IMG/VR virus record: IMGVR_UViG_3300028591_000010
Location: 1-64,000 of that record
Source of the DNA: a virus
Taxonomy: Duplodnaviria; Caudoviricetes
Strand: one strand, 5' to 3'
DNA: 64,000 nucleotides
Under the pieces are notes generated by a model. That model saw nothing but the letters and a program-made list of their open reading frames with translations. It made no database searches and had not been told where the DNA came from. This document shows, in pieces, positions 1 to 64,000 of the stretch. Both the position numbers and the translations under genes were made by a program. Within the stretch, counting starts at the first letter, position 1. Every line of letters begins with the position of its first letter.

Positions 1-23
1 AAGAATAAAGAATTTAAACATAT

Positions 24-19004: not shown

Positions 19005-20491
19005 CATTTTTAGGACTTGAAAGACCGGTCGAACAAGGAAGAGAGTAGGTGTTTGACCCAGTTACAGCTTAGATGGTCTTAAATGCCAATAGAGACTATA
19101 TAAATGCTGTATACAATGAATATCAATAGGCTAAGTAGGACATGAAGGACTTCAATAAAGAGTATGGAGATTTTCTTAGTCCTATAGCTAAAGATATGGA
19201 TTGGTATGCAAAGAATGTTACAGGAGCTGTAAGAGATAAAATAAATGACTTATACGCTAGAGGTATAGATCCTCTACGTAGTTCTGAAGGTAGAGCTGCT
19301 ATATCAATGTTCTTAAATTCTATAGATACTGCAGGTATTGCTAAGGTAAGATAGAGTGCAGAAGCTGCTAAAGAGTATATTAAGAATAGAGGTATATTGG
19401 AGGCATCTGGCAAATGGGATCCTAATTTTGAAAGATTTGCTAATAACGGACAGATGTTAGAAGATTGGGATACTATGGGTGGAGGATAGATTTGGACTAG
19501 AACTTCTCCTGTAGAACTTAAAACCCTTAAAGAAGTTACAGAACCTTGGTATAATAATAGAACGGCACACATGCTTGATAAGGCTGGCGTAGAGTCTTTT
19601 GGAATGGCGTATGATCCTAGATATTAGTACAGTGGATTTACCAATAAAGACCTTTTGGATATTGCAGCAGGATAGACGCCTGGATGGAACGGTAGTATAT
19701 ATGCAGATTATTATAGAAATGTTGCAAAACAAATGGTGGCGGCAAATAAACTTCTTAATGGAGATGACAGTCCTATTACTGCAGAAGAAGTAGAGAGGCA
19801 ACTACAATAGAATGTTGCTACTGCAAATAAAGAATATCTTATACAGCCTACTAAAGAAGCAGATCAGTTTGCATTAGATAATCATCGTACGGCAAATGAC
19901 ATTGGTGCATATAGAGCAAAACAGGCTATTGATTTTGAATATGATAAGAAACGACTAACTGATCCTGTATTTATGGCGGCTGCTGCGCAGAAAGGTAAAT
20001 CTGGAAAGGGAGGAAAAGTTGTAGAAAATCATAATATATTTAGAGAGGCCGAAATAAAAGCAAATTCGGCATTACCAAACAACCCATGGACAACAAATGT
20101 TGGTACTCATACAGGATACGTTCCTTCTGGATAGTATGGAGAATTGATAGATCCTATTATTCCTGGACAATATTTGTTAGGAAAAGATAAGAATTCTGGG
20201 TAGACCATTGAAATGTTCAAATTTAACAACGACGATATACTGGATCATATTTATACTGTAGAAAAGAACGGTGAACTTAGAAAACGAGAACTTGTTAATA
20301 ATTCTAACAGCGATGCGTTTACATTTACACCAGAAGGACAAATTGTTGCTACAAAAACTCCAAGTGGATACCGCTACTTTATATCAGGTACATTGAAAGG
20401 TAATAAGAGTAGAAATGACGTATACAGCAAAAAGAATAAATAGATCTGGATAGAAGTAACAGAAAGGGGTTATGTATATGACGGTAAATGA
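19001..20491 (+). CDS. Putative cargo/ejection protein (TAG=Gln, ~496 aa)
   Basis: Fragments 19142 and 20213 are in frame. ATGA overlap with the previous gene, TGA stop. Confidence 0.65.
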
Positions 20492-32400: not shown

Positions 32401-35400
32401 TATCGTTCGACGGAGAGACTATAAGCGAACCATTTAATAAGTATGAACAAGATTATTCTTACTTACGCAGACAGTTGAATACTGATCCTGAAGATAAAGA
32501 TGAAAATCATATTGGTACACAGATGATGAAGATTGGTCTTTCTAATCTTGTTGCAGAACGTACATATATTGATATGGATGGCAATGAGATTACTGGAGAT
32601 CAGATACTCGAAACAATGATGTCTTCTATCAACGAGCTTGCTAACATAGGAGCTCAGGAGATAAAAGACATGTTTATGACAGTAGATACATAGACTGATG
32701 AAAACGGTAATATAATCTCTTCAGAAGAACGAATAGACTATAAGAAGTTGTCTGAATATCTGAATGAACAATTGACGTCTAGAAATGCTAATAAGACTAT
32801 CATACAGGCTATTCAAACTACTCCTGATGGCAAGAAACTTTCTTCACCTTTAGCAGCTACCCCAGATGCAGCTTGGATTGAGAGTATTTTTATATCTACA
32901 ATGAACAAACACATTGTTGATATAACCACTCCAGGTAAATCATTTGTGCAGCGTTCTGTTTGGGCAATGGAAGGAGATAGTAATATGTCTCCTACTCTCA
33001 ATAGGGGTTAGAAACTTCAGATGATCAACGAAGATCACAGTATGGATGCTGTTATCAGTATAGATTACTTTAAGGATATACTTCCAGAAGGATTATCCTT
33101 CGAATAGTCAAAACAATGGCTTATTGATAATGGTATTATCAGTGGTTATAGAACTAATGACGAAGATATGTCACAAGAATGGTTTGATGCTGAAGCCGTT
33201 ATGATAGGATATCGTATTCCAACTCAGGCTCAATCTTCTATTCATGCTTTACGTATTGTAGATGTATTACCAGCAACAAAGACCACTATTATACTTCCAG
33301 AAGAATTTACTAAAATTACAGGTTCTGACTTTGATATTGACCATTTGTATTTGGCTTCATTCAATTTTAGAAAAGGTGAAGACGGAATGATGACTAGGAG
33401 TTTTGATGTTGGTACAAAAGAATATCATCAAAATAAGATACTTGAAATGTTGATGGTTCTTTTGAAAGATACAGAACATTCTCTCAATCATCTATATAAA
33501 CCAATTGACAACGATACAGAACTTGTTACAGACGTATCAGATTATATTGAAGAGAGTGGAAGTACTAAAGATAGTCCTTATAACTTTGGAACTTTGCACG
33601 AGCAAGTAATACGTAAAAATGACTATATTACTGGTAAGAAAGGTATCGCTCCTTTTGCTTTGAATTCTACAAGTCACGTAATGTGTAGAAACTACGGCGT
33701 AAAGTTTAAAGGCACAAAACTTGTAAATAATACAAGGCTTAAGGATTTTGATAGTAGAACAGATAAGGATAATAATCCTGTAGAATCTTGGTTGTCTGGA
33801 TTTATCAACGCTCACGTAGATATCGTAAAAGATCCTTATATTTCTAGATTGAATGTAAATCCATTTACATACAATATGCTCAATCTTATGATACGTTGTG
33901 GATGGGGAGATACCGCATTGTGGTTCTTAGCTAATCCTATTATTAGATCTATGGCTCAAGCAAATGATCTTGCAGACAGTCAATATATGAGAAGACCTAA
34001 TAAGAATAAGACAGGTAAGTCATATAGAGAAGAGCTTATATTGAATGCTGTAAAAGAATATCTTACTGATGCAGAAGTATCTGATGAAAAGATAGAATGG
34101 CTGCTAACTAGTCCTCAAGCATCTGATCAACGTATAGCATACGTAAGAAAACTTGATCAAATACAATCTAAACTTCAAGATTGTGCAATTAAAGGTACAG
34201 TAGATCACGATACTGCGCTCACTGTTTTCTATGCTTGGAAGATTCTTGAAAAATATTCTAGAGCGTTGGGTAATCTTGTTTAGCATACAAAAGTTGATAC
34301 CAGAAAATATGGTAAAAACTTTATAGCTGTGCAGAAATACTACTCTGACTATAAGAAATTATTTAGACCTAAAGGAGAAGATGCTGAGAATAGTGTTTGG
34401 GATATAGAATCGTTAAAGAATCTTGAAGAAAATTCATGGATAGGTACAAAAACAGATCTTGTAGCTCAAATGCCAATGTAGATATTTGGTGGTCTTACGT
34501 TCAATGCAAACGAGAAATTCATAAACGCTGTAATTAAGTTCTCTAGAATACTCGAAAGGGGCGGAAAAGAATTATCTGCAGACGATGTTGTACAGTTGTC
34601 TAGACATATGCAAACAGCGATCAAGTCTAAGTATTTTGTGAAGTATGCTCACGATGTACTCAAAATGTCAGATAAAGACATAGCTGATTTGTTTACTGGT
34701 TGGAAGAGCATGAATAGACAATTAGTCTCGTTAAAAGACTTAATTGCTAATGATCCAAAATATGCTAGACTTGCTTCTAATACATTCTTAAATCAAATCT
34801 ACTCCATGCTTGAAGACAAACCCGTGTTCGCGAATGGTAGAGAAATGGCAGATAGACCTGGATTTGTTACTGTACTCGATAACGTAGATGACAGCAAACT
34901 CAATTCTGATTTATTGTCTGAAGGTTGGTTAGATCTTATGAATGATGAAGATACTAGAGTTCGAAAGTTTGCCAAGAAGATGGTACTATATGCCTTCTTT
35001 ACGTCTGGTGAATTTAAAGGTTGGAATAAACTTTTGAAGTATGTTCCGTACGAATGGATATCTGGTGAAGTAGATCCACAATACCAATCTTATTCTGAAT
35101 TTATTGAAGAAGAATTATAGAATATATCTGACGACTATTCTGATCTTTACGATGACATCGTTGCTAACAACTTCATGGATTATAGATTTGCTGAACAAAC
35201 GACTGTAATTAACGAAGACGATAGCAGGAATTTCTTAAACGACGATAGAGGGGTTAAGATTGGTAAAGGTGTTGTGTTTGATCAGATAGACGACCTTTCT
35301 GAATATGTAAGTATACTCAAAAAAGGTATGCGAGCAGGTCATCAAGATTCTTATGAACTATACAAGTTAATAGATGTTGTAAAACAAGGGAAGTTGTATT

Positions 35401-35774
35401 ACCCAGTATATGCAAAGATTAAGAAACGTGGTTATCATACACGTGGCAACGATATCTATGAATATGGATGGGATTTCAATTATGCTGAGAATGAAAGAAA
35501 AGGATCTGATACATTTGATTATGAGTCAGCTATACAAAGAGTTGTAGAATATCTGAACAATGGAGAATTGTATGGATTCTCAGATGCAGATGTAAGAGCT
35601 ATCAATAAGATATATATTAGACCAGAAAAAGAAGAGCAAGTTGCTCCAAAACCAAATGAAGATGGGGTTGAATACGATTGGTAGTATATGGAAGACTCTG
35701 GTTATTCTGGAGCACTTGAAGAATTCTCTGATGAAGATGTAAATTATGAATTTGTGAATCATTGTAAACATTAA
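20478..35774 (+). CDS. Giant virion RNA polymerase polyprotein (TAG=Gln, ~5098 aa)
   Basis: More than 20 ORF-track fragments share one frame and end in TAG. Catalytic GSDFDID (33321-33341), GYRIPTQ, KRIGG and ADG motifs, zincin HEAFH (28350-28364). First TAA seen is 35772-35774. Gaps were spot-checked, not exhaustively. Confidence 0.85.
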
Positions 35775-43133: not shown

Positions 43134-43171
43134 AAAAGGGAACAACATCTTATGATGCTGCTCCCTTTTTT
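43134..43171. terminator. Bidirectional terminator at the late/early convergence
   Basis: AAAAGGGAACAACATC-TTAT-GATGCTGCTCCCTTTTTT has A and T runs on both sides and lies between convergent gene blocks. Confidence 0.7.
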
Positions 43172-43641
43172 GGTATAGTTAAACCATCTTCTCCATAACT
43201 ATCTGGATAATAATCTTGTAATGGCATATCGTGGGAATACTGCGTCACTATTGACGAGTCTCCCACTAACTTATCTATAAGGTCCTTAGGAAAATTCCAG
43301 AACTGCAAAACTGAAATCTTCTGTTCTCCTGTAAGATGTACAATGCCATTTTGTTTTGCTATACCTGGTTTTATAGTAAACACATAAACATAATATGGAA
43401 CTCCTTTTACAAGTTTAACATATTTACGTTTAAGTGAACGTGAAGAATCTAAATGAATCGCTCTATTTGTAACATGATCATTTCGTATTCTATCATCGTA
43501 TACCAGATATAACTCCATATCTCCAGTAGGTTTATCTGGATCAAAGGTATAACTATCTATGAATCCTGCAGCGGCAGTGAAGTCAATCGAATTAACTCCA
43601 CCGTCGATGAAAGGAATTGTTAATTTTTCAAATGTACTCAT
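43150..43641 (-). CDS. Hypothetical protein
   Basis: 163 aa ORF, overlapping start/stop with the upstream nuclease gene. Confidence 0.7.
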   Translation of the reverse strand: MSTFEKLTIPFIDGGVNSIDFTAAAGFIDSYTFDPDKPTGDMELYLVYDDRIRNDHVTNRAIHLDSSRSLKRKYVKLVKGVPYYVYVFTIKPGIAKQNGIVHLTGEQKISVLQFWNFPKDLIDKLVGDSSIVTQYSHDMPLQDYYPDSYGEDGLTIPKKGAAS

Positions 43642-44666
43642 AGGTTCAATGACTCTGAGCCATCGCCTTCATAATATTCTCTACTATGCTCCCACTTGCC
43701 TGTAGACTGATGCCATGCTATTTCATCTAGAACATCGTGTATGATTGCTATTCTAGAATTAACAGTATATTCATCAATACAAAACACACGAATCTCATAA
43801 CTACCTGTAGTATCTATACCGATAATGTAGAATTCAAAGTCCCATGTTAATGGGTCTTCTCCACATTCATTTTTTAGATACCATAAAACAGCGTTTTTAT
43901 AATAACACAACTGTCTTAGATAGTCATACATCTCTATACTTTCCTCAAAGTGCCACAGTTTTGCTGTAGTCTTTAAGTCGTATATAATAGCTTTCTTATT
44001 CTTGAAATCAAGAGTAAGACCGTCTAACAGAGATTTACATTGTACGCCTCTGCATTCCCAGTTTATATGAAATTCGTGACTGTAAGTAAATCTTGCCCCT
44101 TCGTGATACGAAACCTTTACGTCGAACGAATCTTCAAATCCAAGTTCCGTGTCAAATGGCCAGATTATCTTACGAGCAAGCTTATGAGATTGAATGTTAT
44201 GCTTGATTTTTTCAAGCATTTTAACATCCCAAGGACTAATCATAATCCTTCCATCATTTTCTTTCAAGAAGTCTATATAATCCTTCAACGTAGAGGCTAT
44301 TTTAAGGCCTTCTGACAGCATTTTGTCTTCTGACTTTCCTGCTGTACTATATGCTTCTTTATAAGCGCTTAGAATGGCTCTATTTGGCTCTATTTCTAGT
44401 GAAGATGCTAAAGCCTGACAGAACTTCTCCTGCTGTGCAGAATTAGGTCTACTTTTGTCCCAGACTACATAGTCTTTTTGGAACTCTTCTGGCTGTAACA
44501 GATATTCGTGAATCATAGTTCCACGCTCCAACACAGGATTCTTTTCTTCTGGTGGAGGATCTGTTAGCATCTTATGTAAAAAGGCTGGTCCCTTCTGTAG
44601 AAACCAGCCTATGTTCGAATTTGAGATCCTCGAAAGGTCCTCGTAATATGGAATACTTATATCCAT
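43638..44666 (-). CDS. PD-(D/E)XK exonuclease (RecE/exonuclease VIII-like, DUF3799-type)
   Basis: ISNSNI, GTMIHEYLL, CKSLLD...IYDLKTT, YLRQLCYY motifs. Confidence 0.8.
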   Translation of the reverse strand: MDISIPYYEDLSRISNSNIGWFLQKGPAFLHKMLTDPPPEEKNPVLERGTMIHEYLLQPEEFQKDYVVWDKSRPNSAQQEKFCQALASSLEIEPNRAILSAYKEAYSTAGKSEDKMLSEGLKIASTLKDYIDFLKENDGRIMISPWDVKMLEKIKHNIQSHKLARKIIWPFDTELGFEDSFDVKVSYHEGARFTYSHEFHINWECRGVQCKSLLDGLTLDFKNKKAIIYDLKTTAKLWHFEESIEMYDYLRQLCYYKNAVLWYLKNECGEDPLTWDFEFYIIGIDTTGSYEIRVFCIDEYTVNSRIAIIHDVLDEIAWHQSTGKWEHSREYYEGDGSESLNL

Positions 44667-45448
44667 TATTTCTTAGCAATGTTAAGGAACTCCATGATTT
44701 CATCAAACGAATCGTCAGGATTGTTCTTCAACTCCTCACCGAAGATTATGACATTATCGTGAGACACAGTCGCAACGTTACTACAGAAGTATTCTGCAGC
44801 AGCATCAGACTTATCCTTGTTGTTGATTATATCATTCAATATACCAGCAACAGTCTCCTTAGTAAGTCCCTTAAAGGTCTTCTTATAACGAATACGAGAA
44901 CATCTATCGTTCAAGTACTCATCGATTTCCTTCTCGTTGTTACAAGTACATATTACAAGCTTCTTGCAAGTAGGCTTAACACCATCTAAGAAACCCAACA
45001 GATATCGTGTATTCCAATATTTGTCGATTTCATCAAATATAACACATACGTCAGTGTTCACATTAGCGAAGAATCCTTCTATATCATCTGCAAATACATT
45101 CTTATCTATTACAATAATAGGCAATCCAGATTCTACAGCTATCTTCTTAGCCATCAAAGTCTTACCACTACCTTTCATACCACTCAACAAGACACCCGTA
45201 GTCATCTTATCGGTGTTATTAAAAGTATTAATAGACTTAGTAATGAATTTATTATCCTTATCTGTCAGATAATAAGTCTTCGGAAATTCGAAATCCTTAT
45301 CCTCTGAAAGATAATCTAAACCTTCTCCTTTATCGTGAAGCAGATTATAAACTTTGCCATTTTGAAGAGTGCAATCAAGACCCTCAGGCTTTGGGATTAT
45401 ATGACCATTGTGCTGAATAAAATCACTTGTTTTCTTTATCTTTTCCAT
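44666..45448 (-). CDS. AAA+ ATPase
   Basis: Walker A GMKGSGKT, Walker B VIFDEIDK, arginine-finger region DRCSR. Confidence 0.85.
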   Translation of the reverse strand: MEKIKKTSDFIQHNGHIIPKPEGLDCTLQNGKVYNLLHDKGEGLDYLSEDKDFEFPKTYYLTDKDNKFITKSINTFNNTDKMTTGVLLSGMKGSGKTLMAKKIAVESGLPIIVIDKNVFADDIEGFFANVNTDVCVIFDEIDKYWNTRYLLGFLDGVKPTCKKLVICTCNNEKEIDEYLNDRCSRIRYKKTFKGLTKETVAGILNDIINNKDKSDAAAEYFCSNVATVSHDNVIIFGEELKNNPDDSFDEIMEFLNIAKK

Positions 45449-45830
45449 TTTGTCTCTGACTTAAAAGTTCTTGGATCATTTCATCTACCTGTTTATGATT
45501 TCTCACCAGATAGCAGCGCATCTTGGAATGATGACGCTTTAAATAATATTTGAAGAGTTTCCATCTTAAAGGGAACGAATCTCCCATAAGACCTTTACAT
45601 TCTACTATAAATCCACGACCTACAAAGTCTGGTAGATATGTAATAGCACGTATTTTCTCTCCTAAAAACTCGAACTTAGGTAACAGAGTAAAATGCTTTG
45701 GCTCATATTTCACAGGTATTCCTGCTTTCATAAAAGCTTCATAAGTATAGAGTTCGAGTTTACTCCTAAAATGGATTCCATACTTATCGACCGCTGTCGC
45801 ATTTTTTACTCTGCTTTTAGAGGATGTCAT
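45423..45830 (-). CDS. PD-(D/E)XK endonuclease (DUF1064/T7 endonuclease I-like)
   Basis: FRSKLE...YEP...TYLPDF...IVECKG motif. Confidence 0.75.
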   Translation of the reverse strand: MTSSKSRVKNATAVDKYGIHFRSKLELYTYEAFMKAGIPVKYEPKHFTLLPKFEFLGEKIRAITYLPDFVGRGFIVECKGLMGDSFPLRWKLFKYYLKRHHSKMRCYLVRNHKQVDEMIQELLSQRQNGKDKENK

Positions 45831-46074
45831 GAACAGCGTCTTTTACGCCATCCTTATCGAATCGAATAGCGGATACAATCTTACCGTCCTTACGGAGTGC
45901 AAGATAACTATTGTCTTCCTTTTCAAACTTCTTATCGATAGCAATCACCTCATAACCGTCTGACATCTGTTTAATGATGTAAGGCTGTTTGAGATATCTG
46001 TATGCTGCATATGCGGCTCCTGCACCAGTACATATCATACCAAGCAGAAAACCGAGGATCAAAGTCTCAATCAT
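45817..46074 (-). CDS. Small membrane-anchored hypothetical protein
   Basis: 85 aa with N-terminal hydrophobic helix, overlaps both neighbours. Confidence 0.6.
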   Translation of the reverse strand: MIETLILGFLLGMICTGAGAAYAAYRYLKQPYIIKQMSDGYEVIAIDKKFEKEDNSYLALRKDGKIVSAIRFDKDGVKDAVHDIL

Positions 46075-47041
46075 ATCGCTTTACTGTATTTGTAAACCAA
46101 GTTTTCACTTGGTCATAGTTATTATTCTTTACTGCGTCTGAAATATCTTTCGATTTAAATTTCTTGTGGACAAATATAGCGTCAAATTTATACTGTTTAC
46201 TGTAATCACGAGCTTTCAACATTCCTGTTGCATCTCGATCATACAATATAACAATATGTTTCCATTTACGTCGTAATGACTTAATTATATCTTCTGGTAT
46301 AAAGGTAGTTTCACTTGATGCAGCTATAGCATTAAATCCCATCTCATACAAACACATCACGTCTTTCAACGATTTTGTGATTATAAGCAGATTTCCCCCC
46401 TCATAGGGCAATTCGGCTAATCCCTGAACGTGCCGATTTGTCAGATTGGTACGCCATTTAGTATACTTTGAGGCTAAAGGACGATAAATCTTAAACTTAT
46501 CATAAACCTTATATGCATACATAGGACTATCTTCTTTGTAGGTTCCTCTGACGACTCTATTACATAAGAAGTATTTAATGCTAAATACATTGAATCGCTT
46601 TAATGTATCAATTGATATATGAAATTGCTTCCAATATCTCTTGTCTGCTTCAGTAAACGGTTGTCGAACTATTCCGATATCAGTATCTTCTCTAGGAGTA
46701 TATGATCGCGTCACTGTTGCCGCACTGCTGGTTGGATTAGATCGCCGTACGATCCTCAGCAATTCTTTCTCTAGTTCTTCTCTCGTTTGTATTCCTTTAT
46801 AGAGCTTCATAAACTTGAGAGCATTACCTGCTACTCCAGTTCCATGATCTTTGAAGAATAATGTACCTTCTTTATTTGGAAATATACAAAAAGAGGGCAT
46901 CTTATCATCACTTCGTAAAGGACTATTCATTAACTTACCAGGCTTAAATGGGCCTAAATAATATGAATAGATTGTATAGTCATCCACTTTTGACAACAAG
47001 TCTCTAAGACTCATTGTGATTGCTGTTTTTGTGCTATACAT
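46067..47041 (-). CDS. dnaG: DnaG-family primase (crAss type)
   Basis: SPLRSDDKMPSF...FKDHG N-terminal domain and TOPRIM motifs ITKSLKDVM and LYDRDATG. Confidence 0.85.
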   Translation of the reverse strand: MYSTKTAITMSLRDLLSKVDDYTIYSYYLGPFKPGKLMNSPLRSDDKMPSFCIFPNKEGTLFFKDHGTGVAGNALKFMKLYKGIQTREELEKELLRIVRRSNPTSSAATVTRSYTPREDTDIGIVRQPFTEADKRYWKQFHISIDTLKRFNVFSIKYFLCNRVVRGTYKEDSPMYAYKVYDKFKIYRPLASKYTKWRTNLTNRHVQGLAELPYEGGNLLIITKSLKDVMCLYEMGFNAIAASSETTFIPEDIIKSLRRKWKHIVILYDRDATGMLKARDYSKQYKFDAIFVHKKFKSKDISDAVKNNNYDQVKTWFTNTVKRYD

Positions 47042-47063
47042 GGCTTATAAGCTCTTTTGTATT

Positions 47064-47128
47064 GTTGTGTGTAGGGATTCGAACCCTATTACGTAATTTT
47101 TCATACGCAGCCTCCAGGATCACACTTC
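47064..47128 (-). ncRNA. tRNA-like element upstream of primase
   Basis: GTGTG/CACAC acceptor-like stem, perfect T-arm TAGGG-TTCGAAT-CCCTA, anticodon-like stem with a non-canonical 8-nt loop. Confidence 0.55.
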
Positions 47129-47399
47129 AGGTCATCTTAAACTCTTTTGTATATTCTTTGTCTTTTACACAGTTTGAATAAAACTTCCAACCCACATATC
47201 ACCATGTTTATTTCTAAGAGGAGTGATATGATTTGACCTCTTCGTTAGGGGCTGACAGGATTAACCTATCAGTCCTCCACCACTGACCGTTTTCATCAAC
47301 CACATATAGATATGAGGACAACTCCATCTCAATTTATAGAAATAAAGTTTATCCGTCCTATCTAAGTGGATGTATCTTATGATTTCCTTTTCAGGTATA

Positions 47400-47996
47400 T
47401 CAAAAAGGCAGGTCGTCAGCACCTGTTGAAGTCTCAGTCACCGGAGTAGCTGCTACGCTAAGCGGATCTGCAGCAGGCTCGTTGTCTGCTACAACTGGAC
47501 GCTCAAGAAGATCGTTCTTCCAGAGCTTAATCTGAGACTCTGTTACACTCATAGGTTCAACGAATGCACCAAGAGAACTTACTTTCGTAAATCCTTTCTT
47601 GTCATAAACCACCTTAAGACGAAGAGGAGTAGCCAACTGAACTGTTTCCAGCTGAGTTTTAACCCAATTTATCATTTCAATAAACGAGCTACCTTCAAAC
47701 TCATTATGACTACCGTTAACAGAATCTATTACCTGCAGAATACGACCGAACTGCTGATTATCGCGCTGCTGAAGTTCTTCATCAGTCTTAATCCACATAT
47801 TCTTCTCGTTCTTCCACTCAGTCATAGTTGCTGTCTGACCCTGTTCATTCTCAAAGATTATCTCCAAGAAATCACGTCCTTGAGGTGTTTTATTTACATT
47901 AACTTCTTTTAAAGTTACATTTTCGTTGATGCCTACAGGCATATAGGAGCTTGTAAACTCCTGATTATTTGTTGTTGCTGTTTTTGTACTATACAT
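47400..47996 (-). CDS. ssb: Single-stranded DNA-binding protein (putative)
   Basis: 198 aa with acidic C-terminal GADDLPF tip, located between the Sak4-like ATPase and primase. Confidence 0.7.
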   Translation of the reverse strand: MYSTKTATTNNQEFTSSYMPVGINENVTLKEVNVNKTPQGRDFLEIIFENEQGQTATMTEWKNEKNMWIKTDEELQQRDNQQFGRILQVIDSVNGSHNEFEGSSFIEMINWVKTQLETVQLATPLRLKVVYDKKGFTKVSSLGAFVEPMSVTESQIKLWKNDLLERPVVADNEPAADPLSVAATPVTETSTGADDLPF

Positions 47997-48022
47997 AATT
48001 TCCGATATTGACTCTAAGGTTC

Positions 48023-48766
48023 TTATTCAGGTTTATAAACACGATCCCAATAGGTTGTTATAGATCCATCATCGTTTCCGGTAGCAATGACAATGTCCTT
48101 GCCCGCGATATGTCTAGCGCGAGCTTCCATGATCGTTCCATCTCCTCCGGATTTAAAACTAATGTGCGTTTCATTATCCTTCCGATAGACGTATCCGACT
48201 GCATCAGCCATTCCGCAGACAATCTTTCCAAGTTTTCCAACGAGGTCGATTTCTTTGGCGTTGACCTCTTCGCCATCTTTATCGGTGATACTATCTTTGA
48301 CATGTCCTATTAGGATAAACTCGTCACACAAATCTTTGAACATATCGATTACTTTCTTTACAGCATCGCGTAAGTACTTATAACCTGCACCTCTTGCGAG
48401 TGTTGTAACATCAGTACCTTTCCAGTTTTTACCCAGTTCAGTCTGCTGATACAATTTGCAAGCATAAGACATACATATGTCCTCTAATCGTGTAGCATTA
48501 TCTATTGTTATATGTTTATAGAAATTATGTCCTACCTCATCGTTCTTAGCTCTAATGGCTTGTGCTATCTCTCCCAGATCATTGATGGTACGTGCCTGAA
48601 CAGCTAGCGCATCTATGAACTGAGATCCGCCTTCAAGGTCTATGATGAGATTATTCTCCAACTGTGCTACACACGAAGTCTTACCAGACTTAGGAAGTCC
48701 GTATAGGATTAAATATGTAGGATTAGTAGAGACTGCAGGAACTTTTTGAGTAGGTAATGTTATCAT
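48023..48766 (-). CDS. AAA_24/Sak4-like ATPase (recombination)
   Basis: YGLPKSGKT, IIDLEGG, ITIDN, ILIGH and MADAVGY motifs. Confidence 0.8.
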   Translation of the reverse strand: MITLPTQKVPAVSTNPTYLILYGLPKSGKTSCVAQLENNLIIDLEGGSQFIDALAVQARTINDLGEIAQAIRAKNDEVGHNFYKHITIDNATRLEDICMSYACKLYQQTELGKNWKGTDVTTLARGAGYKYLRDAVKKVIDMFKDLCDEFILIGHVKDSITDKDGEEVNAKEIDLVGKLGKIVCGMADAVGYVYRKDNETHISFKSGGDGTIMEARARHIAGKDIVIATGNDDGSITTYWDRVYKPE

Positions 48767-48787
48767 ATTGACTTAAAGTTCTAATAA

Positions 48788-49282
48788 TTAAAGGATGTTA
48801 ATATTAATGTTCTTAGCACCCTTAATATAAATGTCGATGATAGTCTTCTTCTTGTTCTCAGCAAGAGAATTCAGGAAGGAAATATTACCGAAGTCCTCGT
48901 AATCGAAGAAATCGTAACCAATCTGAATATTATTCTCGTAGAAAACAATAGGAGTACCATCTGACAGAGTATAACACTTACCGATAATGTACGGGAGCTT
49001 ATACTTCTTGGTATACAACTTATAATTGGTAAGGAACTTACCAGCATCATACAACTTGGGACCGCCCGTCAGGATAATATCACCTGAAGTTTTGCTGAGG
49101 AAATAATCAGCGTCCTCATTCTTTGTACTCAGATTCTTGAACAAATACTGGTTCTTGTCGATTATATCAGTAAGAATGATATCATCGAGAATCTTAGAAT
49201 AGTTTGTACTGCTGGGATTAGCCAGAAAGGAATAATTCTTATTGTTGTTCTTAGTCTTACCAAAAGTGAAAGTCTTTGTCAT
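48788..49282 (-). CDS. Hypothetical protein
   Basis: 164 aa ORF in the replication operon. Confidence 0.65.
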   Translation of the reverse strand: MTKTFTFGKTKNNNKNYSFLANPSSTNYSKILDDIILTDIIDKNQYLFKNLSTKNEDADYFLSKTSGDIILTGGPKLYDAGKFLTNYKLYTKKYKLPYIIGKCYTLSDGTPIVFYENNIQIGYDFFDYEDFGNISFLNSLAENKKKTIIDIYIKGAKNININIL

Positions 49283-49327
49283 AATTCAGCCTAAATTTAA
49301 AAGTTAATACTTGTCATCCACAACGTA

Positions 49328-50251
49328 TTAGCTTTCAATCAGATTATTAAACATAAGGTCATTCTCGAATTCAAGTATACAAGGTTTACCTGCATCTCTG
49401 TTTTTCAACATATGCATGTAGACTTTGTTTTGTGTAGGTAGATGATTCGGACCATATTCTTGTATGTTCAAAATCTCTGGTCTATGCATTACGAGCACAT
49501 AATCACTCGCTTGAAACATTGCATCGGATGACGATAAATCGCTGCGCATTGGGTAATGACTCAGCGGATTGTTTATCCTTTCTGAAGATTCAATGTTTCT
49601 ATTCATCTGTGCTATTTGCACTACTGACGTTAACGGGAACTTTTTAGCTTGTATGAAAACACGCTCAAGTTCTGCTGTTGTCTCTATTACAGAACCAACT
49701 TGTTTCGTCAGCAGAGTATGGTCATACACTATTAAGAAGTGCTTGCCCGTATCTTTCACATAGGTGAAATAGAATTCATTTATAATACGTCTTACATCTT
49801 CAGGAGTACCTGGATTATCTACAAAATAGATAGGATATTCCTTTAGCTGATTAGATACTCTAATGACTTCCTTAAAGGTATTGTCATCGAGGTCCGTCTC
49901 CGAACTATACAAGGTAGAAGTCGTTTTACGAAGTTTATTCGAAAGCGTTCTTCCAACTTGCCTAAATCCAACCATCTCTAATGAGAATGATAAGATGATT
50001 ATATCTTCATTAGGATTCAAATCAATCACATCAGTAGTTAGCTCATTAACAAACGAGCTCTTACCGGAACCAGAGATACCAGCTATGGTATAAACGGTAT
50101 TTGGTTCAATACCTCCCATACACTGCTTATTAAACTTAGACCACCTAGTTTTCAATGAAACAATATTATGTTCCCTTCTACCTCTGATATAGTTGATAGC
50201 TTCTTGAGCTACAACACTCATTGGACGTACTTTAGATGATATCTGTTCCAT
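49328..50251 (-). CDS. dnaB: DnaB-like replicative helicase
   Basis: AGISGSGKS, FSLEM, VYDH, AQMNR, QASD and LKNR SF4 helicase motifs. Confidence 0.9.
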   Translation of the reverse strand: MEQISSKVRPMSVVAQEAINYIRGRREHNIVSLKTRWSKFNKQCMGGIEPNTVYTIAGISGSGKSSFVNELTTDVIDLNPNEDIIILSFSLEMVGFRQVGRTLSNKLRKTTSTLYSSETDLDDNTFKEVIRVSNQLKEYPIYFVDNPGTPEDVRRIINEFYFTYVKDTGKHFLIVYDHTLLTKQVGSVIETTAELERVFIQAKKFPLTSVVQIAQMNRNIESSERINNPLSHYPMRSDLSSSDAMFQASDYVLVMHRPEILNIQEYGPNHLPTQNKVYMHMLKNRDAGKPCILEFENDLMFNNLIES

Positions 50252-50798
50252 AAGAATTTACTGCTATTTTGTTCGTATCTTCCATTTCTTCCTCGATGGC
50301 CTCCCATTGGCTTCTAGTGAGCCAATTCCACATAGTCATCATATAACTAAGGGAGCCTTCTCTCATGCGCTTAGACACCTCGTAGTCGAGGCATTTAATT
50401 ATATGCTCTGCCATAGCGGAGCTTTTACCACATTTAGTATTGAAGAAATGCCGACATTTATTTACATTGGCACGAAGATAGCTTTTAGTGCCATCTTTAC
50501 GCATCACATATACTGGATACATATCGTAAAACAAGTCGAAATAGCTCTTATTAGGAGTTATTGCTTTATTCAACTTGTCTGTTGGTTGATATGTCACAGA
50601 GTCTCCTCTCTCTATCGACTCGACTAATAAATTATCGATTAAGTATGATATCTCGTCGTCGCTGATTAGGCTGACAATCTTGCGGACGTCTTGATATGAT
50701 GGTTGATTCTTATCCAATACCATACTTAAGAACAGTAATTGATTTGAGTTTAGCTCTGGAAATTCATCCAAGAGCTTAGTGTTTACTTCAATAATCAT
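50232..50798 (-). CDS. Putative replication initiator/helicase loader
   Basis: 188 aa between PolB and DnaB, wHTH-like N-terminus, FDLFYDMYP...WLTRSQWE. Confidence 0.5.
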   Translation of the reverse strand: MIIEVNTKLLDEFPELNSNQLLFLSMVLDKNQPSYQDVRKIVSLISDDEISYLIDNLLVESIERGDSVTYQPTDKLNKAITPNKSYFDLFYDMYPVYVMRKDGTKSYLRANVNKCRHFFNTKCGKSSAMAEHIIKCLDYEVSKRMREGSLSYMMTMWNWLTRSQWEAIEEEMEDTNKIAVNSYGTDII

Positions 50799-50827
50799 AC
50801 TGTTGACTCGGGGTTCTAAGTTGGTTA

Positions 50828-52693
50828 CTAAAATAATGATAGCTGTTGTTCAGTGAAGTCCGCTATCACTTTTTTGGCTTCACTGATATAGTACCGATAG
50901 TTAATCTTTCGATCTTCTATCTTGCGATCATCAAACTTATTCAGGATTGTTACTCCTGATTTTGTTAACATATTTGTTCGGTCTCTATCGTCTTCAGGAT
51001 TATCCTTGAAGAGATATGCTCCGTTTGTACTTGCGTAAAATCTATTGATACGTTGTACAGGTTTATCACCATGTATAACTTTAAACTTCTTGTCTACTGC
51101 TTGTGACATCAAGAAATCACGGATTTCTCTATCCTTCTCAATAGTTTCTGTCACTGGAATATGATGAACAAAGTAATTTATAACTGCCTTAGGTATGACT
51201 ACAGGTGCTAGTCCCTTACCTAATTTGTTTTTAGTTATAAACATACCTTTTTCTTCTATCTCACCATTCTTCAAGACCCCAAAGTAGTCGTTGATAGCGT
51301 ATTGATAGAATGCTTCGTACTCATCGGTTTCAAACATAAGCTGTGTAATCTGTTCAACCTCTGAGATGGCTTCCTGAATTCCTTCTCTAAGGCTGTTTTT
51401 AGCCCTGTAGACGACGCCATCGGTGTTGACCTGTATAATCTCACATCCGAGCTCTAAAAGCCTGTCTACGAGCATTAAAAGGATTAGCTGACCGTTTATT
51501 CTAATCTTAAAAACATTGAACGGATCATACATCCAGCTTACCTCCTGTTGCATTTTACCTGTAGGAGAATTAAGCACGATCTTTAGAAACAAGTTCTTAA
51601 TCTTTTGACCTGTACGTTTTGCTTCTACTCGCTCAGCATATAAGTCAGCGAATATATCACAAAAGATTTTTCCTAAGTGGCGAGGTCCCCATTGATATTT
51701 AATCAAGAAGGACGGATACATCGAAGTCACATCTGCGTGACCTATAAACTCGTCATCTTTAGGTAGGAATATCTGCGGTGTGTGGATGGAGTGTATACCA
51801 CCCACGCCTACAGAGTATACCACGTTTGAGAGAACAAACTTCTTCTCATAGCCTTTGCGTTCTTTAGAGTATACGACTTGTTTCTTCATATCTTCTAGAA
51901 CGTCTTGTAACTTTGGATTTTTGTATTTTATATATGGCAATATGACATCCTTCAATGGAATATAATCCATTGGAGAACGCATCTCCTTTATAACATTTTT
52001 AGGAATACCTGTTCTCTTAGAATATTCTTCTAACAGAAAGGTTTCTGCCATCTTCACACTATCCATAGACAAACAGTCTATGCCGTGTTCTTGTTCAATG
52101 AACAAACGCAATTCAATATCTGGTTTCAAACGGTTTAATAACTCTTCTGTTGAATCTACGTCGTTTATATTATATGCAATCATCTCATCGATGTCATCAT
52201 CTTTGATAGGAGCATTAAAGTCACCATCATACTCCTGCACATTTCTATAATGCATTGTCACCTGCATAGTCTTAAGACCAACACGTAGTTTTCTACTGAA
52301 TTGCATTGTGAGCAAATCCATCGATTCGAAGTAATGTGCATACTTCCATCGCTTAATCCGCTCGTATTTTTCATCCTCCGTTTCCACTATATATTTCGAT
52401 AAGTTGTAAAGAGACTGACATATCTTTAAATAAGACATATTAGACAACTTATAATAGTAATCTATTATATAGTTAATTACAACATCATCATAGTGATGAT
52501 TATTATAACCACAGAACATCTTTTCAGAACTATCATAATAGAAAAAATCAACTAGACTGTCTAGCTGATTCTTTCTATTAGATATTTCGAATTTATGTAT
52601 TTGTCCACTTTCAGTATCTTTACAGCAACAGTGGAATGCGTTAGGGAAGATCTCTACGTCATATACGTAGACTCGTCGATTTCGTATCCACAT
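50828..52693 (-). CDS. polB: Family B DNA polymerase
   Basis: Exo motif YDVE, polymerase motifs DVTSMYPS, KIVLNSPTGK and NTDG. C-terminal QLSLF. Ends TAG followed immediately by TAA. Confidence 0.9.
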   Translation of the reverse strand: MWIRNRRVYVYDVEIFPNAFHCCCKDTESGQIHKFEISNRKNQLDSLVDFFYYDSSEKMFCGYNNHHYDDVVINYIIDYYYKLSNMSYLKICQSLYNLSKYIVETEDEKYERIKRWKYAHYFESMDLLTMQFSRKLRVGLKTMQVTMHYRNVQEYDGDFNAPIKDDDIDEMIAYNINDVDSTEELLNRLKPDIELRLFIEQEHGIDCLSMDSVKMAETFLLEEYSKRTGIPKNVIKEMRSPMDYIPLKDVILPYIKYKNPKLQDVLEDMKKQVVYSKERKGYEKKFVLSNVVYSVGVGGIHSIHTPQIFLPKDDEFIGHADVTSMYPSFLIKYQWGPRHLGKIFCDIFADLYAERVEAKRTGQKIKNLFLKIVLNSPTGKMQQEVSWMYDPFNVFKIRINGQLILLMLVDRLLELGCEIIQVNTDGVVYRAKNSLREGIQEAISEVEQITQLMFETDEYEAFYQYAINDYFGVLKNGEIEEKGMFITKNKLGKGLAPVVIPKAVINYFVHHIPVTETIEKDREIRDFLMSQAVDKKFKVIHGDKPVQRINRFYASTNGAYLFKDNPEDDRDRTNMLTKSGVTILNKFDDRKIEDRKINYRYYISEAKKVIADFTEQQLSLF

Positions 52694-52719
52694 GACTCAA
52701 AGGTTCTTTAGTTTATACT

Positions 52720-52841
52720 AGTAGAATGGTGAGGAGTCGAACCTCACATCACCGATTGGAGGGAAACCTTATTAAAGGAAATATTGAGTTTCTCGAATAT
52801 CTTTACACCATCCCCGTTCTTACCTTTAAATGACATTCTAC
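52720..52841 (-). ncRNA. tRNA-like element with expanded central arm upstream of polB
   Basis: 8-bp GTAGAATG/CATTCTAC stem, T-arm GTGAGG-TTCGACT-CCTCAC, D-loop-like AAGGTAAGAAC. Confidence 0.55.
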
Positions 52842-53081
52842 ACTTGCGCACACCGTGGAATTCAACCACTCTCCGTTTCGAATGAGACGCTTGGCGACTC
52901 ACGAAGAACTGCGCGGTCACCCCCGATTCTTTCGAATCTGCCGATGTCGTGACATGCAGTAGTGTGCTACACAGTTACGTTTTAGTTCCGCTATCGGGGA
53001 GCTCAACTCTCGTATTACATTTTTTCCGTTTGCTACGAATTTCACGTAGCGATGGTGTACTAAAAGAGGCTTTACTGTGCA

Positions 53082-57033: not shown

Positions 57034-59175
57034 TTTTACTTATCCTTTTTGATACCGTGGTTGATCCACCAACGATAAGTTAGAATATTTCCTACTTCAG
57101 GGTGTAGGTTCACCGCTATAGAGAGATTTACGTCCGGCTCGGCGGCTCTATGTCTGGACGGTGTTCGTCATACTTATTTTTACTTCGGTAGCTGTGCTAA
57201 TGGGAAGCTTCGTTTGCTTACTAGATTGTTACACTTCTATATTCCTTAAAATGAAGCTCAACTCATGTAACGGGAGCGAAATGGTATCGCATGTATACCC
57301 ATAGACTAATAATATTCGAAGCTTTAAATGCCGAATGTGTAAATTCAATTTCTAAGTTTTCTTGAACAAGATATTTATTGTTTGTAAAATATTCACTAAA
57401 TACTTTCCCTTACGGTACTAAATCCAGAGTTTATACTTGTCCGTTGGCAAAATTTTGGCTAGGCCAACTAATGCTCATAGGACCCCACAAAAATTCGCGT
57501 AATTTCTTCGTTAGTATATTTCCCGTTGTCTATCGAATCATTACTGCGACGATTGTTGCTTAACCACAGATTTTCTCTGATGTTGCATGGTTTAAGGCCC
57601 ACACTACTATTTACCTATATTCCCTTTTAATCATGACGTGCGTGTGTCATTGCACGGGACGTGCTTCATTATCGAACGATCTAGGCTCCAGAACCAAATA
57701 ACCTTACGGCTTGTTTTCTTCTATTGGCATATTGCTTGCCTCATTGTTTATAGTGCACGAATACTGGAGGAATTCCACCTCATACGTCTAGATTTATCAC
57801 CCACCTAAAGATTCATTTTTATCGGTTTCCATTACTACTACTTACACACTAGGTATAAGGTTCATGCAGGTCGCTTTACCCCTCCTAGACAGGGAGGTGA
57901 TTACTAATTTCACGATAGGCTGCCTTGCATCTGGATTTCTCCTTTGTCACGTATATTGCTTCATGGTCCGAACGCACCATCTAGATTTGCTGTCTAGACT
58001 TCTGGTCTACCATCTTGCTACTTGCTTCTCAGGAACGGTTGGCACTCGAACTTCCCGACTTCAACTGCTTCTCATACAACGAGAGCTAAGGTCTTCTACA
58101 CCTTTTTCTATTATTACGTCTATCGGGGGACATCAATTTTTGTTAAACATGTTAATTAACTCTACGGCACGTTTTTCTACTCACATTTAGTTTCATCAGA
58201 ATCTACTACATCGATATGTTGTTCACGTATAGTATACAGTTTACTACTCTGCCGGGACTATATGATATAGTAACATAAGGAATCATCTGATTATATTCAT
58301 GCTTTTGAGGAAGCGGACTTAAGTCTGTACTGGTGTGTACAGGGTCGGATCAACTCCCTAGATAAGTAAATTTGGCTGTCACGTTGCCATCGTACCACAG
58401 GACATTTCCTTTTACTGTGGGTCCTTCTATAGAATCATACTCGCTTACCAGTACTATCTACCTTTGAAATAGCGTTTCTACGCGCGCTTCATCCGCGTAT
58501 TGTAGGCACCTGTCCTACAAGTTAAGTAGTGCATCTACCCGCTGTCCTTTTACTTTTATATACCGCATAAATGACGAAAGCCTGGCGGTCAACATTTTCC
58601 TCAGTACCCCATCCCCGGTGACCCATTGAAACCTTAGCTTCAAAGGTGGTCATTCTGTCTCGACACAGAAAGGATTTCTTCAAGGACCATATTTACGATA
58701 TGGCGCAGACAGTCAAACCTTCTGCTAGGCACATATGTTATTTCTTCATCCCTTTATACACGCTGTGGAGGCGTGAAACACTAGATTACAGCTAATTGAT
58801 ACATCATTACAAGTCATGGTCAAATGTAATGTTGCGACTCCTGTCTCGTTATACTACCCTTATGTATCCTCAGATAGCATGTCGAATACGGCATCATTCT
58901 GCGCTTCTTGCGACTTACTCGTTTTTATGGTAATCCCTCACCAAACGGTTCTCAGGGGCCAAAGGACTTGATACAAACGCTCTGTCCTCTTACTATGAAC
59001 TTTTCTGTTATGGAGTATGCATAACATCATAGCATTTCATCCTACCTTTTGGATATCTCACCTTTTGAGAAGGCTAACATATTCTCGGATCAAGTTATAC
59101 TCTTCGCACCTGGGCTAATGAGACCCATCTGAAATGTGCTAAGCAGGTGCCACTCTGGCTGGAGCCACAGTAATC
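57034..59175. other. ~2.1-kb gene-free, hairpin-rich region (candidate long ncRNA or origin)
   Basis: No ORF of 60 aa or more on the co-transcribed - strand, and many short inverted repeats. Confidence 0.5.
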
Positions 59176-61188: not shown

Positions 61189-61593
61189 TCAAGAATCATC
61201 TATAATTGCAACCGAGTTTGGTGGATTCGGCAAGATATGGATGTATCCCTGAGTCACCTCAGAGACATTACTCAAGGTAAAATTACGCTCATAAGCAGGT
61301 ACTATTGCCTGACTCACAGGTTCTGAAGTTACCTTCTTAGGTGCTGGTAGACCATCATCTGCTAAAAGGTATACTAATGAACCTGATGAAGCCGCCAGCC
61401 CCTGTGTGGGCTGTACCTGCATGAACGTCGTCTTACCTTCATCTTTAGCGAAGCTATCATGGATAAGCTTAACGCCTGCAAAGCCCAACACATAACATGT
61501 GAGCAATGCCCAGAACAGCTTATTACTTTCATTGTATCGAGCAATGAGAGTAATTAATACTATTCCGAGAATGAAAGTGAACAATGTCAACAT
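61189..61593 (-). CDS. Membrane protein (two N-terminal TM helices)
   Basis: 134 aa, directly downstream of the sigma factor gene. Confidence 0.65.
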   Translation of the reverse strand: MLTLFTFILGIVLITLIARYNESNKLFWALLTCYVLGFAGVKLIHDSFAKDEGKTTFMQVQPTQGLAASSGSLVYLLADDGLPAPKKVTSEPVSQAIVPAYERNFTLSNVSEVTQGYIHILPNPPNSVAIIDDS

Positions 61594-61596
61594 AAC

Positions 61597-62154
61597 TTAA
61601 ACGTTAATTTTGGTTTTTAATTTGCGTCTAGTTCTCGACAACGTTGACTTTATAGTTCCTGTTGGGATTTTTAACGCTTTACTAATCTTTTTAACTGGTA
61701 AATTATCGACATAAAACAACTCAAAGATCTTACGAGTGACCTCTGGTAGTTTTTCGAATTCAGCGACAACTTGTTTATACGTCAAATGATTGACTAGATC
61801 ATCCTCCGCTGATACTTGAACATTTTTAAGTGACAGTCTATCACCTTCATCTTCAAGTACAAGTCGCTTATTACGCGTCTCACGTAAATAATCTACAGCT
61901 GTATGATTAGCTATAATTCTCAGCCAACCTCCAAAGGAGTTGTAAGCTGTGAATGTCGAGAGTTTATCATACACTTTAAGAAATACAATATTAGCGATAT
62001 CTTTCGCTTCATCCATATCTCTAAGATATTGGAATAACACACTTTCAACAAACGGTTTGTATCTTCTATAGAGTGTATTAAAAGCAAGCTCATCGCCTGC
62101 TTGCGCCTTTTTGATTAGACCAATTTCAACATCGGTGATTCTAGGATTCTTCAT
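61597..62154 (-). CDS. ECF-type sigma-70 factor
   Basis: AQAGDELAFNTLY, DIANIVFLKVY, FGGWLRIIANHTAVDYLR (region 2) and ISKALKIPTGTIKSTLSRTR (region 4). ATG at 62154 preferred over TTG at 62166. Confidence 0.9.
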   Translation of the reverse strand: MKNPRITDVEIGLIKKAQAGDELAFNTLYRRYKPFVESVLFQYLRDMDEAKDIANIVFLKVYDKLSTFTAYNSFGGWLRIIANHTAVDYLRETRNKRLVLEDEGDRLSLKNVQVSAEDDLVNHLTYKQVVAEFEKLPEVTRKIFELFYVDNLPVKKISKALKIPTGTIKSTLSRTRRKLKTKINV

Positions 62155-63304: not shown

Positions 63305-63308
63305 ATTG

Positions 63309-63382
63309 TGATTCCTAATGGATTCGAACCATTGACCGACAGATTAGAAATCTGTTGCTCTATCCAGCTGAGCTAAGGAACC
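63309..63382 (-). tRNA. tRNA-Arg(TCT)
   Basis: Full cloverleaf GGTTCCT...AGCTCAGCTGGATAGAGC, ACAGA-TT(TCT)AA-TCTGT, AATGG-TTCGAAT-CCATT, AGGAATC-A. CCA not encoded. Confidence 0.9.
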
Positions 63383-63509: not shown

Positions 63510-63722
63510 GGCACTTAGGTAGCCCGTAACACCGACTTTACGCTGCCTCCTTGAGGCCCGTATAGTCTGCAATGTTAATATTGCCAGTTAATTTTATATC
63601 AGAGCGCTTCACGACTTACCGTCTACCGCTGTCAAATCCAAATAGGCCCAGATACTCATGTTAGACTGGTGGACCTAGAGGGATTCGAACCCTCGTCCAA
63701 ACGGCTTATTCTCAGTCACGCT
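63510..63722 (-). ncRNA. ssrA: Circularly permuted (two-piece) tmRNA
   Basis: 3' acceptor piece (GGACGAGGGTTCGAATCCCTCTAGGTCCACCA, ends 63667) precedes the 5' piece (GGGCCTATTTGGATTTGACAGCGG, starts 63649). 7-bp stem with G3.U70. TAACT then tag frame 63585-63538, GNINIADYTGLKEAA*. Outer ends approximate. Confidence 0.85.
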
Positions 63723-64000
63723 AAGATTCTTTTGATGTGATGTTGTCAAATCATGCTACATCTCTTGTGAACTCTATGATGATCAGTCACAGAATTCGAT
63801 TTAAGGCCATTTTCAGCCGTTCTAAGGCGTTTTCTAACCTCTAATGGGTAGCTAATCCATAAGCGGTTATTAAACGCTTCAAAACGGCTTTTTGGGACCC
63901 CATAAAAAGCACATTGCCCTACTACTGACTCTAAGGTTCTGAATAGAATATGCTTGCATTCTTGATATACAATGCAGTGTCAATATGTTGATACAATCTC

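Follow-up and report, generated by a model that had tools for sequence, protein, structure and literature searches.

The 64,000-nucleotide (nt) stretch analysed here (the window; positions 1 to 64,000 of IMG/VR record IMGVR_UViG_3300028591_000010) is part of a 106-kb virus record of a crAss-like phage, classed from its sequence as Suoliviridae, Oafivirinae-like; among named phages, cr272_1, cr131_1, Bohxovirus and Burzaovirus (crAss-like, Suoliviridae/Oafivirinae) are closest to it. Between 43 and 64 kb the - strand, read in the standard code, forms the early/replication arm and encodes a family-B DNA polymerase (PolB), a DnaB-like helicase, an AAA_24 (Sak4/RecA-like) protein, a Toprim primase, an AAA ATPase, a PD-(D/E)XK-like exonuclease, a DUF1064 nuclease-like protein and an ECF-type sigma factor. 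A short bulged hairpin recurs in this arm, mainly beside start codons of replication genes and in the leader of a transfer-messenger RNA (tmRNA), and is very probably the binding site of a factor that regulates the phage's genes. In this arm the - strand is the sense strand, and coordinates are those of the window unless marked "genome".

Hairpin copies in the early arm

The exact consensus is present five times as AGAAC-N5-AGTCA and twice as AGAAC-N4-AGTCA, in every case on the - strand of the early/replication arm, with none on the opposite strand, while shuffled sequence is expected to give 0.16 (N5) and 0.18 (N4) matches, together ~0.3 vs the 7 observed. In 80 related loci (1.1 Mb), gathered by a search with the polymerase, the same consensus occurs 144 times in sense and four times in antisense orientation. 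Copies with altered but paired stems bring the total to ~14 per genome (Table 1). Six of the seven copies listed in the initial annotation are exact matches at the - strand positions given there; the seventh, placed at 43634-43648, was mis-registered, and the actual element, at 43643-43656, contains two compensatory pairs and recurs at the orthologous place in relatives. The copies from 57136 onwards in Table 1 had been missed.

Table 1 Hairpin copies and the adjacent tmRNA (window coordinates unless marked "genome").
Feature	Sequence	Position	Strand	Context
163-aa gene hairpin	AGAGT-CATTG-AACC	43643..43656	-	1 nt before ATG (gene 43150-43641); within exonuclease gene 3' end; 21.8 bits
AAA ATPase hairpin	AGAAC-TTTTA-AGTC	45458..45471	-	9 nt before ATG (gene 44666-45448); within 3' end of DUF1064 gene
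Primase hairpin	AGAGC-TTATA-AGCC	47042..47055	-	abuts ATG of Toprim primase (46067-47041)
198-aa gene hairpin	AGAAC-CTTAG-AGTC	48010..48023	-	13 nt before ATG (gene 47400-47996); 26.5 bits
AAA_24 hairpin	AGAAC-TTTA-AGTC	48770..48782	-	3 nt before ATG; Sak4/RecA-like gene 48023-48766
188-aa gene hairpin	AGAAC-CCCG-AGTC	50805..50817	-	6 nt before ATG (gene 50232-50798)
PolB hairpin	AGAAC-CTTTG-AGTC	52694..52707	-	abuts ATG of family-B DNA polymerase (50828-52693); 25.5 bits
Hairpin upstream of 217-aa gene (g217)	AGAGC-CGCCG-AGCC	57136..57149	-	3' edge of 2.1-kb stretch without open reading frame; 102 nt upstream of g217
Consensus match		61311..61324	-	inside 134-aa gene; 17.9 bits
Possible hairpin	AGAAT-CCTAG-AATC	62137..62150	-	codons 2-6 of ECF-type sigma gene (61597-62154)
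Permuted two-piece tmRNA		63538..63729	-	RF04321, 58.2 bits (gathering 47); downstream of array
Array copy 4		63927..63940	-	leader upstream of permuted tmRNA; sole array copy within window
Array copies 1-3		genome 64198-64211, 64098-64111, 64014-64027	-	just past window end

The distance from the last paired base to the ATG is 0 (PolB), 0 (primase), 1, 3, 6, 9 or 13 nt, in agreement with the earlier claim that the copies lie at or within 13 nt of the start codon, and the gap of zero is kept at the PolB and primase orthologs. Seven of the 14 copies are located no more than 25 nt upstream of a start (binomial tail ~5e-8), so that the enrichment at start codons, for which a check had been proposed, is borne out and the placing is not random. 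The seven hairpin-bearing genes are those of the module that do not overlap the preceding gene (the exception is the 163-amino-acid (aa) gene, whose start overlaps the exonuclease stop); the helicase, exonuclease, DUF1064 and 85-aa genes overlap their upstream neighbours and have no copy. Every gene-linked copy falls inside the 30S footprint, and at two genes the helix ends at position -1. The 188-aa gene is annotated in relatives as ScpB-like or replisome organizer, while for the 198-aa gene, labelled 'ssb' in the initial annotation, no family match was found.

A covariance model built from a seed alignment of 51 sequences and scanned over 77 kb ranks the seven gene-linked copies and the array copies top, with the ten best matches all on the sense strand of the early arm. 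Half of all copies lie away from start codons. Rfam scans (43000-64000; genome 63001-76000) returned only transfer RNA (tRNA), the permuted tmRNA and chance-level matches, none of them over the hairpins or the array.

Shine-Dalgarno sequences are not seen ahead of this phage's genes, as expected for a Bacteroidota host (the host being taken from the phage family). Some early genes without a hairpin carry a second motif, AAC/T-TTTTAAA, ~12-16 nt before the ATG (54661, 54855, 49282 and 61105, - strand), which could be a promoter or leader element; a similar TTAAAA box precedes many early genes of cr6_1. The late genes on the + strand (2399-43087) have long frames only when TAG is read as an amino acid, assumed to be glutamine. 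One of these frames has 5100 aa (20472-35774) and likely corresponds to the virion RNA polymerase region; another has 2435 aa. Public sequencing runs with matching sequence are ruminant-gut samples, and in the two ruminant-gut metatranscriptome runs with the stretch it is present as assembled contigs with the same break points as in the DNA run.

Pairing, compensatory change and stability

The element can be written N1 G2 [A3] N4 N5 Y6 - loop - R10 [A11] N12 N13 C14, with pairs 2-14, 4-13, 5-12 and 6-10, i.e. 14-15 nt forming 4 base pairs (bp), one bulged A in each strand (positions 3 and 11) and a loop of 2-4 nt of free sequence. The tiny bulged stem proposed in the initial annotation is therefore retained, while its single bulged A becomes two and its loop of 2-3 nt is extended to 4. 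In the 5' to 3' direction one strand runs G-A-A-C-Y and the other R-A-G-U-C; both fit R-A-R-Y-Y with the second base bulged, giving the helix approximate two-fold symmetry.

Compensatory double changes at orthologous sites were identified for all four pairs. Pair 2-14 changes from G-C to U-A (UUAAC..AGUA) or A-U (AAAAU..AAUU), pair 4-13 from A-U to G-C (AGAGC..AGCC) or U-A (AGAUA..AUAC), and pair 5-12 from C-G to U-A (AGAAU..AAUC), G-C (AGAAG..ACUC) or A-U, while pair 6-10 alternates between C-G and U-A around a freely variable loop. The covariation first noticed for the outer spacer bases and for the primase swap thus holds, and extends to the whole stem in relatives. At the PolB orthologous site seven versions of the stem are found, with pairing intact in all. 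With the register there fixed by the ATG, and genomes called positive by their other sites only, the four pairs are complete in 12 of 15 distinct leaders and 52 of 60 cells pair, with C-G/U-A and A-U/G-C alternating, a result reached by none of 2000 column shuffles. The primase site in a fixed register is less clear (27/48 cells pair, equalled by 40 of 2000 shuffles), variable spacers and offsets blurring the signal. Across distinct instances from all loci, double compensatory variants number 37, 45, 6 and 27, and the six single-transition variants 0-9 each. The seed alignment was selected for pairing and is hence illustrative only: both-side changes are found in 48 cells vs 10.8 in shuffles, and sliding the partner by 1-3 columns abolishes the signal.

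The stem has no stability of its own: the minimum free energy (MFE) is 0 kcal/mol in seven of the eight copies folded and -1.1 in the primase copy, and no copy does better than shuffled sequence. A structure that is under selection yet unable to fold alone implies that a partner must hold the helix. An intrinsic terminator was considered and rejected, with an MFE of 0 and ATG or mixed sequence, not a T run, following the stem.

The same variation bears on a promoter in double-stranded DNA for the phage's own ECF-type sigma, with GAAC as -35 and GTC as -10. The phage does encode such a factor, and GAAC and GTC are similar to ECF promoter elements. However, the two parts are 4-6 nt apart vs 16-17, the start codons leave no room for a transcription start, and copies differ within one genome yet stay complementary (AGAGT..AACC, AGAAG..ACTC, GUAUC..GUAUC), a property that a sigma factor could not read. 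Such a promoter is effectively excluded by the 4-6-nt spacing and by complementarity that is free of sequence within a single genome.

Distribution among relatives and copies away from start codons

Orthology mapping places the element upstream of the PolB, 188-aa, AAA_24, 198-aa, primase, AAA ATPase and 163-aa families and essentially nowhere else. Relatives are bimodal: most, including distant ones (59-62% polymerase identity), carry it at 4-7 of these sites, and one clade (G005/L049-type) has it at none of them, with plain A-rich leaders at the same genes. The covariance model matches before the same genes in Bohxovirus, Dulem virus 42, cr272_1 and cr131_1, and no such element was identified in cr6_1 (Bearivirinae); from the genomes compared, the motif appears so far to be restricted to Oafivirinae crAss-like phages. 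In the G005-type clade and in L016/L059, a perfect hairpin of another kind, AAGC-UUAA-GCUU, abuts the primase start (L049:16964-16986, L056:16039-16061, L016:15878-15900).

The model has no match in the Burzaovirus genomes cr124_1 and cr7_1, where inspection revealed eight copies of GUAUC-N3-GUAUC, on the sense strand only, which form the same helix with U at both bulges. Four of these are found in the tmRNA leader, one at sigma codons 2-6, one upstream of a g217-like gene and two next to starts, of AAA_24 (abutting) and of the AAA ATPase (7 nt before it); in genome fragment L066 the U-bulge type abuts PolB. Both bulges switch jointly in every copy of a genome, which fits a co-evolving symmetric, probably dimeric trans-acting factor and argues that the bulged bases may be what the partner reads.

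The lineage without gene-linked copies suggests that the element is dispensable for expression, and a regulatory add-on therefore fits better than an essential initiation signal. A positive translation element, i.e. a hairpin that, by itself or together with a phage factor, recruits the Shine-Dalgarno-independent Bacteroidota ribosome or sets its position, would suit a phage with no visible Shine-Dalgarno sequence, the more so as the hairpin takes that place at each gene not translationally coupled to the preceding one. This is improbable, as a helix ending at -1 must melt before the start codon enters the P site, the MFE is 0, relatives express the same genes from plain A-rich leaders, and neither the array copies nor the copy 102 nt upstream of g217 have a start codon to serve.

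The largest group of copies away from start codons is a four-copy array spanning ~290 nt (genome 63927-64211) within a ~500-nt non-coding leader flanked by a 168-aa gene (genome 64239-64745) and the permuted tmRNA. In an alignment of this leader from seven genomes, the hairpins occur at fixed positions with compensatory differences between them (copy 3, for example, is CGAGC..AGCC, UGAGU..AACC or CGAAC..AGUC), and the clade without gene-linked copies retains three array copies. The tmRNA is followed by a tRNA-like element and tRNA-Arg(TCT) (63308-63382), and is itself conserved in 5/5 relatives searched.

The site at 57136-57149 is kept in one further genome (G002) and, as the U-bulge type, in cr124_1 and cr7_1. 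It borders a 2.1-kb stretch (57050-59170, - strand) without a credible open reading frame inside an otherwise packed operon, possibly a large non-coding RNA; the gap is also present in cr272_1, cr131_1, cr124_1 and cr6_1. A conserved peptide accounts in part for the copy in the sigma gene, and in some relatives the element is abolished by synonymous codons. In the Burzaovirus sigma gene, peptide and codons both differ, yet a U-type element results, and on this ground the sigma-gene copy may be real. The sigma factor itself has regions 2 and 4, and relatives from both Oafivirinae and Bearivirinae conserve it. For the match at 61311, the paired form is not conserved in relatives and a function is doubtful.

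tRNA-like T-arms without a detectable full tRNA were identified on the - strand at 52734-52743, 52858-52867 and 47076-47085, where relatives have real tRNA genes; the first lies ~26 nt upstream of the PolB hairpin and the last ~20 nt upstream of the primase hairpin. These neighbours and the tmRNA bear on the main rival to an operator, an RNA processing signal, in which a phage or host endoribonuclease would cut the early transcript at the symmetric bulged helix, leaving messages with short or no leaders, and would trim the leader of the tmRNA precursor. In its favour, the bulge-helix-bulge shape with its two-fold symmetry is reminiscent of substrates of dimeric endonucleases, tRNA or tRNA-like elements, themselves processing sites, occur 10-26 nt upstream of the PolB and primase copies, and the zero gap at these two genes would yield leaderless AUG ends; moreover, the array precedes a stable RNA that needs processing, and the module encodes PD-(D/E)XK proteins. 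However, cleavage at the two copies inside the coding 3' ends of the DUF1064 and exonuclease genes would destroy those messages, the products would not be uniform given gaps of 1-13 nt, it is hard to see what four sites in a single leader would be for, and neither an RNase family nor a tRNA-intron endonuclease family was matched among the early proteins. The archaeal bulge-helix-bulge also differs, with two 3-nt bulges and a 4-bp helix between them, compared to 1-nt bulges separated by 2 bp here. Processing is accordingly rated as unlikely.

Candidate partner and proposed regulation

No match to CsrA was obtained among the early proteins, including basic ones of 62 and 78 aa, even at E<=5, and none to a RegA-like family among those searched. 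Profiling within 10 kb of PolB gave no candidate, each window gene having a homologue in genomes without gene-linked hairpins. Genome-wide, only the 168-aa gene adjacent to the array tracks the gene-linked hairpins, being present in 12 genomes with such copies and absent from the complete genomes G005 and G007, a pattern that represents at most one loss event. Its product (- strand, = L106:1239-1745) is highly charged, with a conserved RRRE motif, a C-terminal YEGxY..W motif and ~150 homologues, none of them a named protein, and is modelled as a long helical hairpin with a beta tip, without an informative fold match. A conserved basic protein of 184 aa is modelled as a helical bundle (pLDDT 91), again with no informative match, and the ESM Atlas search returned hypothetical proteins only.

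Comparison with known systems gives partial likenesses in each case. Like T4 RegA, one phage factor would act on many early messages, including those of replisome genes, at sites overlapping the initiation region, but RegA sites are unstructured and AU-rich over the AUG, whereas the site here is a paired bulged helix, and T4 lacks a multi-copy non-coding array. MS2, Q-beta and PP7 operators are likewise small hairpins that carry a bulged A, sit at a replication gene's start codon, are bound by a dimer and lack stability in its absence. They differ in having one bulge, a specifically read loop and one site per single-stranded RNA genome, compared to two symmetric bulges, a free loop and ~14 sites in a double-stranded DNA crAss-like phage. 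The operator logic suggested in the initial annotation fits the geometry of the gene-linked copies, but the element belongs to neither class: an MS2-type operator is contradicted by the two bulges and free loop, and a RegA site by the covarying pairs and the lack of a RegA family among the proteins searched.

The closest parallel in layout is CsrA/RsmA with CsrB/RsmZ, where short hairpins at many ribosome-binding sites are combined with a multi-copy non-coding RNA and a dimeric binder; the counterpart of that RNA here would be the leader with four copies conserved in seven genomes. Csr sites, however, present GGA in the loop, whereas the loops here are free and without GGA, the bulged stem being presumably what is recognised, and one lineage here has the array without gene targets. 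Lambda N-boxB and LicT/SacY-RAT are likewise hairpins of 15-30 nt that fold only under a protein clamp, RAT being quasi-symmetric with bulged A's and read by a dimer, but here there are no adjacent terminators or boxA, and many copies per operon are linked to start codons.

The base-paired, strand-specific nature of the element beside start codons and its need for a trans-acting partner are well supported by sequence comparison, through compensatory changes at orthologous sites, zero intrinsic stability and the genome-wide switch of both bulges; this much of the RNA operator first proposed stands, while the search for a protein binder failed. That the element is a protein-bound RNA operator, defining a regulon in which the replisome genes are repressed together, is the favoured reading, with about an even chance of being correct. 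We infer for this reading that the paired strand is RNA, the partner a protein and the effect repression, and the role given to the array is of the same standing. The hairpin would then be a cis-acting RNA module on early and replication transcripts of the Oafivirinae crAss-like phage, its helix clamped by a trans-acting, probably dimeric and phage-encoded protein that would read the two bulged bases and the helix shape. As every gene-linked copy lies in the 30S-covered region, two of them ending at -1, a clamped helix would occlude initiation: with the factor bound 0-13 nt ahead of the AUG, 30S subunits would be kept off and the replisome genes jointly repressed in translation. The four leader copies beside the tmRNA would be further sites for this factor and serve as a decoy, a reservoir or a platform for assembly. 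A fuller version, a Csr-like post-transcriptional circuit in which a dimeric RNA-binding protein switches the replisome set (perhaps with sigma) on or off at the translation level, in a host phylum that makes no use of Shine-Dalgarno pairing, a tmRNA-linked four-site decoy buffers it, and an A-/U-bulge code co-evolves with the protein, is tentative, possible rather than probable.

Several observations weigh against the operator reading. Half of the copies lie away from start codons, and the lineage of G005 keeps the array with the gene copies absent, which is odd for a pure decoy. No RNA-binding family was matched among ~35 early proteins (Pfam, PHROGs, NCBIfam), and two good models (pLDDT 80 and 91) have no informative fold. 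In copies with a 4-nt spacer the inner Y-R pair would close a 2-nt loop, which is sterically strained without a partner. Finally, in a controlled count over all loci, single changes giving G.U do not outnumber those giving A.C (frequent G.U, as first suspected, was traced to a single lineage), and the covariation therefore does not tell RNA from DNA.

This last point leaves room for a hairpin in unwound, single-stranded DNA, acting as an N4-like promoter read by a phage RNA polymerase or as a site where priming or loading takes place on one strand. The copies are spaced 1-2 kb on one strand, and the crAss-like virion RNA polymerase transcribes single-stranded or denatured DNA (10.1101/2020.03.07.982082); in phi14:2, no motif was found at early transcripts and sigma-70-like promoters occur at middle genes (10.1101/2020.03.07.982082). 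N4 virion RNA polymerase promoters are also small hairpins read single-stranded, in a phage with a giant virion RNA polymerase. They are, however, few, located on the template strand upstream of the transcription start, and built of 5-7 uninterrupted pairs, compared to four interrupted pairs with two bulges here, a much weaker stem. The ATG abutting the stem at PolB and primase leaves no room for a transcription start unless the message is leaderless, all elements fall within ~21 kb (43.6-64.2 kb) and are tied to start codons, and a related lineage transcribes and replicates without them. A signal in single-stranded DNA is for these reasons judged improbable.

Full-text searches found no description of the motif in the literature, and the element is classed as a new RNA motif within a general kind already known. 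To our knowledge, next to nothing is known of post-transcriptional timing of gene expression in crAss-like phages, the dominant gut viruses, and translation control in Bacteroidota, which proceeds without Shine-Dalgarno pairing, seems to us equally little understood. The element offers a testable handle on both, being compact and backed by covariation, with two natural specificity types (A- and U-bulge) and a natural lineage without gene-linked copies, and it may lead to a new family of RNA-binding proteins. For the annotation of uncultured Suoliviridae, it serves as a marker of true start codons and of the replication regulon.

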